A stretch of DNA of 64,000 bases from a virus (taxonomy: Duplodnaviria > Heunggongvirae > Uroviricota > Caudoviricetes): positions 1 to 64,000 of the IMG/VR virus record IMGVR_UViG_3300042892_005180, one strand, 5' to 3'. Position 1 is the stretch's first letter, and the number at the start of each line of letters is the position of its first letter. Under the pieces are notes generated by a model, which did not search any database, was not told the DNA's origin, and was given only the letters and a program-made list of their open reading frames with translations. Of this stretch, positions 2,014-16,555 are shown piece by piece. The position numbers were made by a program, and so were the translations under genes.

Positions 2014-2442
2014 ATGCGCGATCTCATCACCCTCGTCGAAGCCCTCAACACCAATGCGGAAGTCACCCCCTTCCAGGACCCCGATATCTCCGGGCATGAA
2101 TTTACAGTCGGGGGTCGCAAATATGTGGTCGCCTACTCCGACGACGGTGAGAACGAATACTACATGAGCTTCACTGGCGAGGACGACCGTGGTCGCCAGA
2201 CCGCCATGCTGCTAGGTCATAACGCCCCCTTCAAGGTCTTCAGCGGCGTCGTGTCTTCGATGCTTCGTGTGATCGCAGAAAGGGAGCCTGAAGAGATCAG
2301 GTTCTCCGTCGATAACCGCGAGGAAAAGCGCGCAGCCGCATATGATCGTCTCCTGGATGCGGCGGAAAAGAATGGCGTGATGCCGGATGGTTACGTCTGG
2401 GACCGCGATCAGAACTTCAACTACCGCATCTTCCGCCGCTAA
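2014..2442 (+). CDS. Leader-family protein (MRDLITLVE..), putative capsid-targeted cargo
   Basis: ATG at 2014 is preceded by ATAAATACctg. The N-terminus MRDLITLVE matches the recurring leader. The upstream part of the tool ORF is antisense junk. Confidence 0.7.
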   Translation: MRDLITLVEALNTNAEVTPFQDPDISGHEFTVGGRKYVVAYSDDGENEYYMSFTGEDDRGRQTAMLLGHNAPFKVFSGVVSSMLRVIAEREPEEIRFSVDNREEKRAAAYDRLLDAAEKNGVMPDGYVWDRDQNFNYRIFRR

Positions 2443-2449
2443 ATATCGG

Positions 2450-3193
2450 ATGCGCGATCTCATCAATCTCATCGAACAGAACGACGATTACGACTATTCT
2501 CGATGGGGTGATGACGACGAGGGTGCCGAGCCCCATGAGGCCGACTCTCTGAAGAAACTCTGGCCGAAGGATGTGGTCAACATTCCAGAATTCCAGCAGT
2601 GGTTCGCCGGTTCGAAAGTTGTTGATGAACGGGGTCTTCCGATTCTGGTTCATCGCGGCCGAGCCCAACGATGGTCGGTGATGCCGACCGGCCATGCGGA
2701 GAAACTCAGACAGGCTTTCGAACGAGACGGTTTGATGAAAAGCTTTTCGAAAGAAATGGAGTTCGCTGATCGAATGGGTGACGTCGCGTGGTTCACCGAT
2801 GACGAATTCGTCGCGCACGGCTACATGGACGGTGCCGAAGAGGGGGACGTCCTGGAAGCCTATTTGTGCCTCAAGAACCCGCTCGATCTCCGACTGGAAA
2901 GCATCGGACAAGAAGAGGCCGAACGCATCATGACCGCTATTCGCGGCGAGGCTGTCAGCCTGAACGGCGAATGGTCCCGTCCTGCCAAAGTCCTTGCCGA
3001 CAAAATCGTCTGGGACAACTCGGTCGTGGTCGCGTGGGCGAGAGCGAACGGCTATGACGGCTTGATGCACAACGACACCTGCCTCTATGGGCGCCACGTC
3101 CATCACTCCTACGTGGCCTTCCGTCCTGATCAGATCAAAGCCGCCGCCAATACCGGAGCGTTCAGCAAGACTGACGTGAACATCCACCGATGA
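2450..3193 (+). CDS. Leader-family protein (MRDLINLIE..) with C-terminal GYDG..SYV.F.P.QIK domain
   Basis: CTAAATATcggATG sits upstream. The C-terminal block ANGYDGLMHNDTCLYGRHVHHSYVAFRPDQIK is paralogous to RHGYDGFAYTNAVEDPGHTSYVTFHPGQIK in the 6757 gene. Confidence 0.7.
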   Translation: MRDLINLIEQNDDYDYSRWGDDDEGAEPHEADSLKKLWPKDVVNIPEFQQWFAGSKVVDERGLPILVHRGRAQRWSVMPTGHAEKLRQAFERDGLMKSFSKEMEFADRMGDVAWFTDDEFVAHGYMDGAEEGDVLEAYLCLKNPLDLRLESIGQEEAERIMTAIRGEAVSLNGEWSRPAKVLADKIVWDNSVVVAWARANGYDGLMHNDTCLYGRHVHHSYVAFRPDQIKAAANTGAFSKTDVNIHR

Positions 3194-3597
3194 GAGACCT
3201 GATCGCAATCGTCGAGGAATGGTGCCACCAGACCAAGCACGGTGTTGACGTGTTCAAAAACCCGTCGCGCCAAGAACTCATGCGCGAAATACAAAAAGAC
3301 GAATATGGTCAGGTGCGCTGCATAGTCTTGCCAGAAGACCTGTACGTGTTCAGCACCGATATCATTCATCTCGCGTGTGCGGATTCTTTGGGCCTATCTC
3401 ACGATATCATTGGCAGAATCTTCCTTGACAAAAAAGGCCCGTTCATCAATCGCGATGATGACATCGCAACGGTGGGCAAGCCGGGTGGCTCAGAAAATCT
3501 TTGGAACATTCAGCAGCGGGAAAATGTTGACCGCTACTGCGTGGACCACCCGATTCTGTCTCGCCTCTATCCCAACTATGTCCTGGAGGTTCGCTGA
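3190..3597 (+). CDS. Leader-family protein (MRDLIAIVE..)
   Basis: Leader motif at the N-terminus. The start overlaps the upstream stop, indicating translational coupling. Confidence 0.65.
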   Translation: MRDLIAIVEEWCHQTKHGVDVFKNPSRQELMREIQKDEYGQVRCIVLPEDLYVFSTDIIHLACADSLGLSHDIIGRIFLDKKGPFINRDDDIATVGKPGGSENLWNIQQRENVDRYCVDHPILSRLYPNYVLEVR

Positions 3598-4376
3598 TGC
3601 ATCCCTGGACTCTTGAGAACGCGAAAGCGTTCGTCGCCGATCTTCAGTCTCGTGTTCGCGGCTACGACCTGGAGATCGTGGGCGGCGTCATCCGTAAGGG
3701 CTACAGCGACAAGGACGTCGATATCGTCCTGACCAAGAACGCCGAGTTCAGCCATGCCGATGAGGCGGCCGATGCGATGCAGGCCATGGGTGCCGCATTC
3801 AAGGGCCGCATCGACAAAATCCCCATGGAGGGATGGTTCCTCGCTGACGGTCGCAGGGTCGATTTCTTCTATGCGGAGAAGGGCGACAAGCGGAAGCGCA
3901 GGCCCGTCGTGGAGACCACGATGCGGGACCTCATCATGCTAGCCGAGTCGGCCTCGCTGCCAGAGTTCGTCTACCATGGCACCATCATGCGTCTCTGGAC
4001 TGCCGCGCACACTGGCTCCACCAATCTCTTCCTGGCAAGAGATCGCGATGAGGCGGAGAGCTACGCAGATCGTTCATACGAGAATGGTTGTCAGACCGAA
4101 CTCAACGACGAAGGACATTTCCCATACGACCCCGAGTCGACTCCCATCATCGTCGAGTTTCGTCTCGCCGATCTCATGGCTGATTCCACGCTGGCGTTCG
4201 ACTACGACTGGGGCTGGGAAGACGCGGCGGACGGAACGACGTGGCAGCAATCTCTGGCCGAGGTAGGCTCCTTCGTCGTCACCGGCTTCACGGACGGGCA
4301 CCGGAAACTTGGCAAGGTCGCGCTCGCCTATCCCGAGTATCACGCTGAGCAAATGGCATTGCTTTCACAGCCCTGA
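3597..4376 (+). CDS. Minimal Pol-beta-type nucleotidyltransferase fused in frame to an internal leader (MRDLIMLAE at nt 3921) plus an H-G-T-motif domain
   Basis: GGAGG-8-ATG start. The G[GS]x9DxD nucleotidyltransferase signature is GGVIRKGYSDKDVDIVL. The second half starts TTMRDLIMLAESASLPEFVYHGT, so this looks like a fusion of two cassette units. Confidence 0.6.
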   Translation: MHPWTLENAKAFVADLQSRVRGYDLEIVGGVIRKGYSDKDVDIVLTKNAEFSHADEAADAMQAMGAAFKGRIDKIPMEGWFLADGRRVDFFYAEKGDKRKRRPVVETTMRDLIMLAESASLPEFVYHGTIMRLWTAAHTGSTNLFLARDRDEAESYADRSYENGCQTELNDEGHFPYDPESTPIIVEFRLADLMADSTLAFDYDWGWEDAADGTTWQQSLAEVGSFVVTGFTDGHRKLGKVALAYPEYHAEQMALLSQP

Positions 4377-4392
4377 TCTCTATACTGCACCG

Positions 4393-15449: not shown

Positions 15450-15477
15450 GCTTGCCGCATACCATACGGATTTTTGC

Positions 15478-15505
15478 TTGACAAGCCGTTTCTCTCGCCT
15501 ATGGT
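15478..15505 (+). promoter_or_regulatory. Divergent sigma70-like promoters sharing the palindromic -35 GCTTGACAAGC (plus: TTGACA-17-TATGGT; minus: TTGTCA-17-TATGCG)
   Basis: Direct sequence. The two divergent genes are paralogs. Confidence 0.45.
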
Positions 15506-15559
15506 GTCCGTGTCGAAGTCCTCCGCCTGCGACCAAAAATGTGTCAATGGAGAACTGAG

Positions 15560-15775
15560 ATGAAAGTATATGTGTTGATCGAGTCGGACCACGAATACCG
15601 CGACGGCGGCCAGGACTCTGTTCTGGGTGTCTATCGCGACCGTTCGGTGGCCTTCGCGGAAGTGCTGAAGACGGTTCCTGATGCCGACCCGGAGAAATCC
15701 ACGTGGGAGGCACCCGGTTCCAACTTGTTCGGTTCCTACCATGCGTTCGCGCTGGAGGAACACGATCTGGTCTGA
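15560..15775 (+). CDS. small MKVxVL-family protein
   Basis: SD GGAG. MKVYVLIESDHEYRDGG...FALEEHDLV is paralogous to 23083..23295 (MKVFVLLTVYSDY...FVLEEHEVE). Confidence 0.55.
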   Translation: MKVYVLIESDHEYRDGGQDSVLGVYRDRSVAFAEVLKTVPDADPEKSTWEAPGSNLFGSYHAFALEEHDLV

Positions 15776-15838
15776 ATGGGGGGCTCTCGTTCGCGGGGGC
15801 CCTTCGTCTATGCGCGGCTAAATATTCGCATGCAGACC

Positions 15839-16555
15839 TGGATTCGCCTCTTCGAAAACGCCGACGAAACCCCCTATGTGCGCTTCGGGGACCTCCCCAA
15901 GAACGGCCGGTCGGAGATCGGCGCCGCGCCCAACTGGGTAGCCGCTATGGGTCAGAAAGATACCCACGAGCAGGGCGTCTCCGTCTACCCCCTGCACTGG
16001 AACGACGAGAGACAACGGTTCTGGATTGAGTGCTACAATCTCGCCTCGCTGGATGAACTCCTGGCCCAGAAACGCCCAGCCTTCCTCGTCCACGGCGAGC
16101 CGATCTGGGACGAGGAAGAGGGCTTCGAGGCGACCGGAATGGACGGCGAACCTCTGCTGAAAGACGCCCAGGTTGTCCGCCAGTTGAAATACGAGGAACT
16201 CTACATCCGCGAATGGTCGGACGTCCTCCCGGAAGAATATCTCGACGAAGGCAAGCCCGCTCTCTCCTACATCGAGCAACTCAACAAGGACAGCAGCCCG
16301 GTGACCGGTCAGGTGCTCGCCATTGAGACCAACGGCGAGGTCAGAAAAATGGGCGAGATGACTCTCCGCCTCGGTGACCTCACAGAACTCCTGGACTGCA
16401 CATACGGCTTCGCTCAGGGACCCCACACGGTCACCTATGAGGGCCAGCAATGGAACATGTATTGGCCGGGCTTCCACGACGGTGTCGTCAACCCGCTCTC
16501 CTCCAAGCTCATCGGCGGAAAACTTGAGGGTCCGGCCATCCTGGTGTCTCGCTGA
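15839..16555 (+). CDS. Leader-like protein (MQTWIRLFE..)
   Basis: CTAAATATtcgcATG upstream. The N-terminus ends L-F-E. The tool ORF N-extension is rejected. Confidence 0.55.
   Translation, partial: WIRLFENADETPYVRFGDLPKNGRSEIGAAPNWVAAMGQKDTHEQGVSVYPLHWNDERQRFWIECYNLASLDELLAQKRPAFLVHGEPIWDEEEGFEATGMDGEPLLKDAQVVRQLKYEELYIREWSDVLPEEYLDEGKPALSYIEQLNKDSSPVTGQVLAIETNGEVRKMGEMTLRLGDLTELLDCTYGFAQGPHTVTYEGQQWNMYWPGFHDGVVNPLSSKLIGGKLEGPAILVSR

Follow-up and report, generated by a model that had tools for sequence, protein, structure and literature searches.

A stretch of 64,000 nucleotides (nt) from a tailed virus of the Caudoviricetes (IMG/VR record IMGVR_UViG_3300042892_005180, positions 1 to 64,000; the window in what follows) contains an array of genes whose products begin with versions of one short peptide, M-R-(D)-L-I-D-L-I-E in consensus. 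Here this peptide is called the leader, genes that begin with it are called tagged genes, and the rest of each protein is called its cargo. The leader is a discrete peptide module carried by mostly unrelated cargo, and in a cultured relative, Agrobacterium phage Atu_ph07, every gene that starts with such a peptide has its product in the virion proteome. We consider it likely that the leader is a capsid-targeting propeptide of the T4 type, such that tagged proteins would be expressed late, bind the prohead core, be cleaved by a gp21-type protease, and be delivered together with the DNA.

A short leader peptide on mostly unrelated proteins

In a six-frame translation of the window, the strict motif MR-x-[LFWIM]-[ILMV]-x-[ILVMF]-[ILVAFC]-E was found 10 times, compared with 0.023 matches expected from amino-acid composition, and 200 shuffles yielded no match at all; these figures rule out a chance origin of the motif. 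All 10 matches lie on the + strand, from 2014 to 14594. A position-specific scoring matrix (PSSM) trained on the 10 strict copies also picked up 54670(-), 10891, and 15830. The leader is 8-10 residues long, with hydrophobic residues at positions 4, 5, 7, and 8 and acidic residues at positions 3, 6, and 9. Looser copies, which begin with M-[RKQ] and have hydrophobic residues and a hydrophobic-x-Glu among their first 8-12 residues, were found at 5614, 12227(-), 18789, 21193(-), 26323, and 51875(-), with further candidates at 45472(-) and 46824(-). The window thus holds ~20 tagged genes (10 strict and ~10 looser).

A sequence-only reading of the window had described an array of at least 15 such genes between 2014 and 16555, each with a leader that ends in hydrophobic-x-Glu. 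All of the N termini that it listed are present in the sequence, and all of the leaders do end in this way, but the gene that begins with MQTWIRLFE starts at 15830 rather than at 15839. The + strand of 2014-16555 has 12 N-terminal copies and one internal copy, and one further copy lies on the - strand at 12227, so that the figure of 15 is reached only if copies outside this interval are counted. The array itself is real, and its extent was drawn too small: the open reading frame (ORF) at 2-730 and six more genes upstream of the window are also tagged. The upstream sequence belongs to a 119.5-kb contig (Logan SRR35488161_34746, here L103), in which window position 1 corresponds to position 6812; the phage is also represented on JGI contigs. 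L103:1-6811 contains seven further tagged genes, most of them with TAAATA-N4-ATG, and their leaders are MRLAEIME, MRAHIDLAANILFE, MRTIELFE, MRYRDLKE (followed by VYHGS), MRDLITIITE, MRRLMNLIE, and MRYIDVLLE. The MRYIDVLLE gene crosses the window start, which it enters as ORF 2-730, and the other six lie wholly within the 6.8 kb upstream. Taking the window and these 6.8 kb together, the source contig carries at least 27 tagged genes.

The earlier proposal that the leader is kept as a peptide and not as DNA was borne out by the codons used for Arg2: CGC is found in promoter-led genes, and AGA is found precisely in those genes whose ATG forms an ATGA overlap with the preceding stop codon (3190, 6536, and 10891). 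Because Arg2 is retained despite the switch from CGC to AGA, the constraint acts on the peptide. Further, the same peptide is conserved across phages of 37% and 57% G+C. A signal at the mRNA level was rejected because the codons vary while the peptide is kept and because genes with the promoter box of the tagged genes, but without the peptide, exist.

An all-against-all BLASTP comparison of the window cargos revealed almost no similarity outside the leader. Conservation among ten Atu_ph07 paralogs falls from 0.84 in columns 1-8 to 0.26 in columns 9-30 (gappy, ~20 columns) and rises to 0.46 in the domain; the sharp drop right after the Glu fits a cleavage boundary. It could be argued from the N-terminal position of the leader, and from nothing else, that it signals secretion or marks a lipoprotein, or that it simply forms the first helix of a single family of paralogous domains. 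However, the leader is short, acidic, and amphipathic, without a hydrophobic core or a lipobox, and the true signal peptides in the window are different (MKFRILFLALALAAC at 23030(-), MRRIILALSALALAAC at 25752(-), and MIKYFAAALAAFSLSAGA at 13635); moreover, the cargos are unrelated by BLASTP and fall in different Pfam and PHROG families. The character of the leader, the distinct real signals, and the unrelated cargos effectively refute both forms of this explanation, to which we give next to no weight.

Homologs of the window proteins show the leader joined to rearranged domains. P0002, a homolog from another metagenomic phage, consists of MREFMIIVE and the C-terminal half of the protein encoded at 3597, and P0003 consists of MREFMNLAE, an ADP-ribosyltransferase (ART) domain of the polyvalent-protein clade (ART-PolyVal), and the N-terminal, nucleotidyltransferase-like half of the same 3597 protein. 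P0005 joins MRNLIDLVE and ART-PolyVal to the C-terminal module of the kinase encoded at 12227(-). Because P0002 and P0003 split at the leader within the 3597 protein, the internal leader at 3921 corresponds to the former N terminus of the downstream domain. This copy, MRDLIMLAE, is indeed internal, as the sequence-only reading had it: it lies inside the continuous ORF 3597-4376, which the metagenome gene caller treats as one 259-amino-acid (aa) gene. GGAG is found 6 nt upstream of it, and a separate internal translation start at 3921 is possible.

Shuffling of domains between tagged genes of related phages is also what would be expected if the leader and its promoter box were a recombination module at the DNA level, that is, a cassette boundary without targeting function. 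Consistent with this, several copies have ~15-25 nt in common (TAAATA-N4-ATGCGCGATCTCATC), and a GIY-YIG/Eco29kI-like endonuclease gene lies within the array. Such a module would not account for the retention of the peptide across copies with different codons and between the 37% and 57% G+C phages, and the perfect link to virion proteins described below needs a function at the protein level. As a complete explanation it is therefore very improbable, and recombination at this junction would more likely accompany targeting as a consequence than replace it as an explanation.

Leader-bearing proteins in the virions of a relative

The nearest cultured relatives of the window phage are Atu_ph07 (490 kb), Sinorhizobium phage Phosso (469 kb), and the Pseudomonas PA5oct group, with 52-56% amino-acid identity in the helicase and one virion protein, and the window from 36 to 62 kb is syntenic with Atu_ph07 gp34-gp80. 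The members of this clade are jumbo phages related to T4 and have the gp20 portal, the gp21 protease, the gp23 capsid protein, and the late sigma factor gp55 (PMC7824862); a prohead protease of the gp21 type and a late sigma factor of the gp55 type are encoded by both Atu_ph07 and PA5oct. The array had no nucleotide match in a megablast search of the phage collection, an exact 36-mer taken from it had no match in IMG/VR, and tblastn revealed next to no orthologs of the window cargos, even in Atu_ph07. No leader array was found in Phosso at 340-390 kb. The same TAAATA-N4-ATG-MRDLI arrangement was found on IMG/VR contigs of 44-59% G+C, one of which is a 240-kb contig from the sample of the window phage.

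The whole Atu_ph07 genome was scanned in six frames with M[RKQ]x?[LFWIMY]xx[LIVMF]xE for ORFs of at least 60 aa, and the matches were compared with the virion proteome (Attai 2018, Table S5), which holds 131 of 714 gene products (18% background). The scan gave 26 matches: 22 gene starts, 3 matches internal to other genes, 1 ambiguous match, and 1 unannotated ORF. All 22 of the leader-start genes, 21 of them at the annotated start, are represented in the virion proteome (Fisher P = 1.3e-17, obtained with an expression picked after the data had been seen and with gp53-63 as paralogs that are not independent). The leader-start genes listed are gp43, gp53-63, 381, 394, 407, 408, 482, 487, 548, 561, and 672, and about ten of the 22 are scattered over the genome, outside the structural clusters. 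Many tagged proteins were detected with 7-31 unique peptides, compared with 1-4 for evident contaminants (the ribonucleotide reductase RNR, a RecA-like protein, and terminase). Thus, where the sequence-only reading had proposed internal head proteins, tag-bearing proteins are indeed virion-associated in the relative, and virion incorporation is the well supported part of the T4-type reading. The leader is absent from the text of the Atu_ph07 paper, and a text search of the literature returned no description of such leaders in the clade.

Effector-like domains also occur among the Atu_ph07 cargos: gp53 has a Zeta_toxin kinase domain, gp381 matches ART-PolyVal weakly, and gp54-62 as well as gp408 carry an R-S-E-like YRGM motif. 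The unannotated ORF (NC_042013, 315526..315248(-), 92 aa) begins with the leader MRLFDLFE. In gp407, the leader MKLINLLE at 303788(+) lies 11 codons inside the annotated start and is the probable true start. A possible second shared N terminus, MS(x)(D)LRK[FY]xNI[IL]xE/SY (here and below, a slash follows the Glu of a hydrophobic-x-Glu), was seen on the Atu_ph07 virion proteins gp206 (165981), gp594 (424781), and gp33 (26390); no copy of this second class was found in the window.

Late-promoter boxes, proposed prohead processing, and the T4 precedent

The window contains 31 TAAATA hexamers, of which ~20 sit 4 nt (a few, 5 nt) before the ATG of a long ORF, compared with ~1 expected by chance, and the ORFs with such an abutting box are without a Shine-Dalgarno sequence. 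The box is often extended to ATAAATA or TATAAATA. The T4 late promoter is the 8-bp TATAAATA at -13 to -6 (PMC2988020), and ATAAATA is the predicted late promoter of the Rak2-like hairy jumbo phage CBB (PMC5259590). Abutting boxes are found on the + strand at 2004, 2440, 5604, 9931, 12817, 14584, 15819, 18779, and 26313 and on the - strand at 12237, 21203, 25382, 37365, 50550, 51886, 54680, and 55119. Every tagged gene has either TAAATA-N4/5-ATG or an ATGA/TGATG overlap with an upstream tagged gene, and the resulting late operons are 2014; 2450-3190-3597; 5614-6039-6536-6757; 9941-10891; 12829; 14594; 15830; 18789; and 12227(-). Untagged genes of the replication region have ordinary AGGA-type sites. 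On the strength of the boxes, tagged genes are predicted to be late genes, and the mRNAs of the genes with an abutting box in this phage are probably leaderless or nearly so.

In Atu_ph07, the box precedes the tagged genes, as well as the genes for the protease, portal, and sheath, by ~20 nt, and a Shine-Dalgarno sequence lies between box and gene. Over the whole Atu_ph07 genome, TATAAATA was observed 41 times compared with 94 predicted by base composition, and TAAATA 361 times compared with 953; this under-representation fits avoidance of the late-promoter box outside promoters.

The position of the boxes would also be consistent with a role of the leader in expression or turnover, either as a need of leaderless or late translation or as a degron or recognition tag for phage ClpX, ClpA, or ClpS, with presence in the virion reflecting late abundance. 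Most tagged genes of the window do have TAAATA 4-5 nt from the ATG without a Shine-Dalgarno sequence, several Clp proteins are encoded by the relatives, and lysate contaminants are present in the Atu_ph07 preparation. However, at least six TAAATA-N4-ATG genes are without the peptide (55109(-), 50540(-), 37355(-), 25372(-), and, on the + strand, those behind the boxes at 55989 and 62569), and Atu_ph07 tagged genes keep the peptide behind ordinary Shine-Dalgarno leaders; leaderless translation therefore does not account for the peptide. In addition, the peptide is retained in coupled genes that lack a box and across varying codons, and a degron would not yield detection of 22 of 22 proteins with high peptide counts. 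We regard this role as improbable.

In T4, the 10-aa capsid-targeting sequence MKTYQEFIAE sends the internal proteins (IPs), as well as foreign proteins fused to it, into the prohead core and is then removed by gp21 (PMC9026906, PMC9958956, PMC8442874); targeting needs residues 4 and 7, and processing needs residues 8 and 10 (PMC9026906, PMC8442874). By processing, T4 gp24 loses 10 residues and Alt loses 7 (PMC9026906, PMC9958956, PMC8442874). The layout of the window leader is the same but one residue shorter, with hydrophobic residues at 4/5 and 7/8, Glu9 as P1, and Leu7 as P3. The likeness in overall shape to the T4 sequence that the sequence-only reading had claimed therefore holds for the pattern (a hydrophobic position 4, hydrophobic residues near the end, and a terminal Glu), whereas residue identity is confined to Met1 and the Glu.

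Homologs of gp21 were found in Atu_ph07 (gp204), in PA5oct (gp331), and at no fewer than 585 IMG/VR loci. No gp21-family protease is encoded in the window, and the 240-kb contig from the same sample was not among the matches listed in the IMG/VR protease-profile scan; restricting the protease scan to GC-rich codons left 8 contigs, all other than that of the window phage. No leader genes were found in the loci around the IMG/VR protease genes. In the head modules of the relatives, several N termini have hydrophobic-x-Glu: in Atu_ph07, the capsid protein gp215 (MSKLFESNWDTAKAALLE/G), the scaffold-like gp214 (METGFEKLLE/G), gp205 (...ALLE/G), and gp206 (...IINE/S); in PA5oct, the capsid protein (...SALTE/G), gp330 (...ILNE/Q), and gp333 (MKINDIITE/G). 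Processing of some tagged Atu_ph07 proteins is suggested by the bands of the published SDS-polyacrylamide gel, in which band sizes were deduced from the other proteins of the same band: gp53 (87 kDa) is most abundant in a band of ~20 kDa proteins, gp63 (41 kDa) is found among 25-30 kDa proteins, and gp482 (32 kDa) is found among ~14 kDa proteins. The protease gp204 likewise runs low.

The tag could instead direct proteins into the particle by another route, such as docking to the portal, neck, tail, hair-like fibers, or an assembly chaperone, in which case the Glu motif would be incidental and the tag retained. The Atu_ph07 proteome gives association with the particle and not location, and virions of this clade are unusually complex, with 131 proteins. 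However, capsid, scaffold-like, and head-module proteins of the relatives have the same N-terminal motif, the cargos are soluble enzymes (ART, GNAT, kinase, and ParB), like T4 Alt, and are not fiber-like, and both the fall in conservation after the Glu and the shifted gel bands point to processing. We consider this route unlikely, although the least so of the alternatives weighed here.

None of the results contradicts the T4-type propeptide reading, and the points that weigh against it are the following. The virion evidence comes from Atu_ph07, whose leaders (MRWEQLTE, MRLIDLLE) resemble the window leader without being identical to it, and the head module and protease of the window phage lie outside the window. 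Atu_ph07 particles were only PEG (polyethylene glycol)-purified, and the list holds clear non-structural proteins, indicating some lysate carry-over. The evidence for cleavage of the leader, namely the conservation drop after the Glu and the gel bands, is circumstantial, and the leader matches the T4 capsid-targeting sequence in pattern only. In PA5oct, the strict leader was not found in 1-199 kb, where only looser hydrophobic-x-Glu N termini occur. Lastly, with the T4 box geometry (-13 to -6), N5 is an exact fit, but N4 fits only with a 1-nt shift: under strict geometry N4 puts +1 on the T of the ATG, and a leaderless mRNA would need initiation 1 nt nearer to the box.

Within the T4-type reading, the following course is proposed. 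Tagged genes would be transcribed late from gp55-type (T)ATAAATA boxes placed 4-5 nt from the ATG, giving probably leaderless mRNAs. The tag would bind the assembling prohead core and so place the protein inside the shell, after which the gp21-family prohead protease would cut behind the terminal hydrophobic-x-Glu and free the mature cargo. The cargo would be kept in the head and enter the host along with the DNA; besides many proteins that lack homologs elsewhere, it comprises predicted ADP-ribosyltransferases, a nucleotidyltransferase-like domain, a GNAT, a ParB-like nuclease, and a gp0.7-like kinase. Location in the head, cleavage, ejection into the host, and effector roles of the cargo are inferred. 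More tentatively, and with the balance of probability tipping slightly against it, one short transferable peptide could be a general address label for capsid loading, acting much as a secretion signal does but for the virion, that serves an injected proteome of at least 25 enzymes and homolog-less proteins, expressed from leaderless late mRNAs and evolving by cassette and domain shuffling at the junction of promoter and leader.

The arrangement would work like the T4 capsid-targeting principle, greatly expanded, with polyvalent-protein domains as cargo. Like the T4 capsid-targeting/IP/Alt system, it has a putative N-terminal propeptide of ~10 aa on otherwise unrelated proteins with a hydrophobic-x-Glu end that follows gp21 logic (PMC9026906, PMC8442874), an ADP-ribosyltransferase among the cargo, and, judging here from the relatives, a T4-type head module (gp20, gp21, and gp23) with a gp55 late sigma factor. 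Unlike T4, the leader is MR[D]LIDLIE rather than MKTYQEFIAE, the cargo consists mostly of enzymes rather than of small basic proteins, the ADP-ribosyltransferases belong to the polyvalent-protein clade (ART-PolyVal) and not to the Alt/VIP2 clade, and the late box abuts the ATG. The numbers also differ: T4 has ~4 tagged proteins, compared with at least 20 in the window plus 7 upstream and with 22 in Atu_ph07. As for the arsenal that the sequence-only reading took to be far larger than Alt plus three internal proteins in T4, the number of tagged genes agrees, with at least 27 on the contig against about 4.

The hypervariable internal-protein loci of T-even phages are similar in that a conserved leader is found on fast-changing, phage-specific cargo in clustered genes, with a proposed role in a host-phage arms race (PMC9026906); the present array is far larger and comes from jumbo phages of a distant clade, and its cargo is enzymatic and multi-domain, with shuffling of domains in evidence. 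With the polyvalent proteins (Iyer et al. 2017), the tagged proteins have in common an ART of the polyvalent clade, ParB-like, protein kinase, and Zeta-toxin kinase (Atu_ph07 gp53) domains, and both are predicted to be packaged and injected (PMC5512222). Unlike in one giant fused polyvalent protein, the domains are here unbundled into many small tagged genes. In the inner-body and ejection proteins of phiKZ and SPN3US, which are from a different phage lineage, the cleavage motif is (S/A/G)-x-E, and we know of no short stereotyped N-terminal tag common to all cargo in these phages. Dozens of such proteins are packaged in the jumbo head, and their propeptides are removed by a gp21-related prohead protease that cuts after Glu (PMC5694885, PMC10052503). 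The Dar (defence against restriction) proteins of phage P1 are anti-defence proteins carried in the head and delivered with the DNA (PMC9024508, PMC12810830), but their incorporation is hierarchical and protein-dependent (DarA/Hdf) rather than due to a common cleavable N-terminal tag.

A sequence rule of this kind identifies, from genomes alone, candidate particle-carried proteins of a whole jumbo-phage clade, most of which are now annotated "hypothetical." Applied to Atu_ph07, it accounts for 22 virion proteins that had been unexplained and flags an unannotated gene as well as a start that is mis-annotated. Host-modifying families (ART, GNAT, kinase, ParB nuclease, and Zeta-like kinase) abound in the tagged set, so that its members are candidate effectors of first-minute takeover or anti-defence. 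The T4 capsid-targeting principle would thereby apply in a distant lineage as well, on a scale five to ten times larger, and two delivery strategies, many tagged genes and one polyvalent protein, would be linked. The late box abutting the start codon points to leaderless late mRNAs in a phage related to T4. The leader is also a candidate tag for loading proteins into large capsids: if it is an address label, the tag alone would predict, for any related genome, which effectors are ejected, and it could be used to bring foreign proteins into jumbo capsids.

Tagged genes, their cargo, and neighboring genes

The tagged proteins of the window are 73-571 aa long, with one to two domains each. At the left end, 2..730 (+) is the C-terminal part of a 308-aa tagged gene (leader MRYIDVLLE; L103:6615-7541, TAAATA-N4-ATG) and is a paralog of the 26323 and 51875 genes by BLASTP. 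The gene at 2004..2442 (+), with a TAAATA box and MRDLITLVE/ALN, encodes 142 aa that match phrog_16075/6387 and is a weak paralog of the 21193(-) gene. It is followed at 2440..3193 (+) by a TAAATA box and MRDLINLIE/QND on a 247-aa ART-PolyVal ADP-ribosyltransferase (Pfam PF18760, E=6.7e-13). The gene at 3190..3597 (+), with MRDLIAIVE/EWC and 135 aa, is ATGA-coupled to the upstream gene, its start agrees with that of the metagenome gene caller, and its cargo is a recurrent NPSR..RG..D..H module described below. The 259-aa ORF at 3597..4376 (+) comprises the nucleotidyltransferase-like N-terminal domain, the internal leader MRDLIMLAE (3921-3947), and a "YHGT" ART-like domain.

The next operon begins at 5604..6039 (+) with a TAAATA box and MRYLDIICE/QAP (141 aa). 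It continues with 6039..6539 (+), which is TGATG-coupled and has MRDLIDLIE/EAR on 166 aa with a ParB-like nuclease domain (phrog_3264/1033, E=2.5e-6), and with 6536..6757 (+), which is ATGA-coupled and has MRHLIDLIE/STM on 73 aa. It ends with 6757..8097 (+), in which MRHLIDLIE/SVD stands on 446 aa with a weak N-terminal ART-PolyVal match (PF18760, E=7.9e-6, below the cutoff) and the recurrent module at the C terminus. At 9931..10894 (+), a TAAATA box and MREFMTIVE/SQG precede a 317-aa protein in which the recurrent module is followed by a "YHGT" domain; the gene at 10891..11280 (+), with MREFMNVIRE/SIE and 129 aa, is ATGA-coupled to it. On the opposite strand, 11277..12237 (-) has a TAAATA box and MRATDLFE/QTL on a 316-aa T7 gp0.7-like protein kinase (phrog_15752, E=3.5e-8) with a C-terminal recurrent module.

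Three further genes follow on the + strand. At 12817..13572 (+), a TATAAATA box and MRNWMSLFE/TSH lead a 247-aa GNAT acetyltransferase (PF00583, E=8.5e-6, above the cutoff). The gene at 14584..15034 (+) has a TAAATA box and MRNLIDLAE/TVK (146 aa), and that at 15819..16555 (+) has a TAAATA-N5 box and MQTWIRLFE/NAD (241 aa, start 15830) and has a paralog with the leader MRLAEIME at L103:563.

Beyond the main array, 18779..19277 (+) has a TAAATA box and the looser leader MRSFLDSIKITE/ESL (162 aa). The gene at 20738..21203 (-), with a TAAATA box and MRFKEINE/SFD (151 aa), belongs to the family of the 2014 gene and has a weak tblastn match (E=0.001) to the Atu_ph07 virion protein gp482 (MRWNDLLE). 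At 26313..27306 (+), a TAAATA box precedes the looser leader MSDYVNFLFE/SIME/APL (327 aa). The candidate tagged protein at 44132..45472 (-), MSIIQELCE/SRL, has 446 aa, is ATGA-coupled, and matches Atu_ph07 gp64 by tblastn (E=9e-16); gp64 is a member of the virion proteome. The gene at 45469..46824 (-), MDKTSDILNE/KGE (451 aa), is a weak candidate, being Shine-Dalgarno-led and without Arg2. At 51030..51886 (-), a TAAATA-N5 box and MLLLELME/API (281 aa) compare with the Atu_ph07 virion protein gp483 (MLLSELFD). Lastly, 52955..54680 (-) has a TAAATA box and MRDLMTLME/NLFE/AQS on 571 aa, with a PSSM score of 24.5. In the paralog trio 26323-27306, 51030-51875(-), and 2-730, the leader runs into a conserved E/AP(L/I)xDFxxYG(D/N)W, and the mature N terminus may be conserved in this family.

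Among the cargo identities that the sequence-only reading had offered, the ADP-ribosyltransferase (as ART-PolyVal), GNAT, ParB-like, and kinase domains were confirmed by hidden Markov model (HMM) searches; the minimal nucleotidyltransferase shows up solely through a motif and the homolog P0003, and the "Tpt1-like" assignment was not confirmed. Searches of Pfam and PHROGs gave no family for about half of the cargos. The recurrent module is ~100 aa long and reads NP[ST]R ... [VL]RG ... h[YF]h[WF]D-x4-5-H ... hP.[LM].[RK][LF], with a YIWD-x4-5-H form as well. It is found at 3190-3597, 7780-8097, 10000-10390, 11277-11630(-), and 17724-18062, that is, in five window proteins (four tagged, and the untagged product of the 17724 gene), and also in the relatives P0002 and P0005. 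It makes up the entire cargo of the 3190 gene, the C terminus of the 6757 protein and of the kinase, and the N-terminal domain of the 9941 protein. The module had no sequence match in the PDB and no Pfam-annotated homologs, and its AlphaFold model is of low confidence (mean pLDDT, the predicted local distance difference test score, 62).

Mid-array, on the opposite strand, the 163-aa GIY-YIG/RE_Eco29kI-like endonuclease gene (9375-9866(-)) is accompanied by a DUF7205 gene (8698-9336(-)), and the pair may be a homing or mobile element. Genes with export signals adjoin the array at 12235-12783(-), 13635-14009(+), 22293-23030(-), 25384-25752(-), and in the 27679-29088(-) region, and a Band_7/SPFH protein is also encoded nearby. 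Their signals, a twin-arginine-like MLMNRRTALAAM..., the Sec-type MIKYFAAALAAFSLSAGA, and two lipobox-like LAAC N termini, are clearly unlike the leader.

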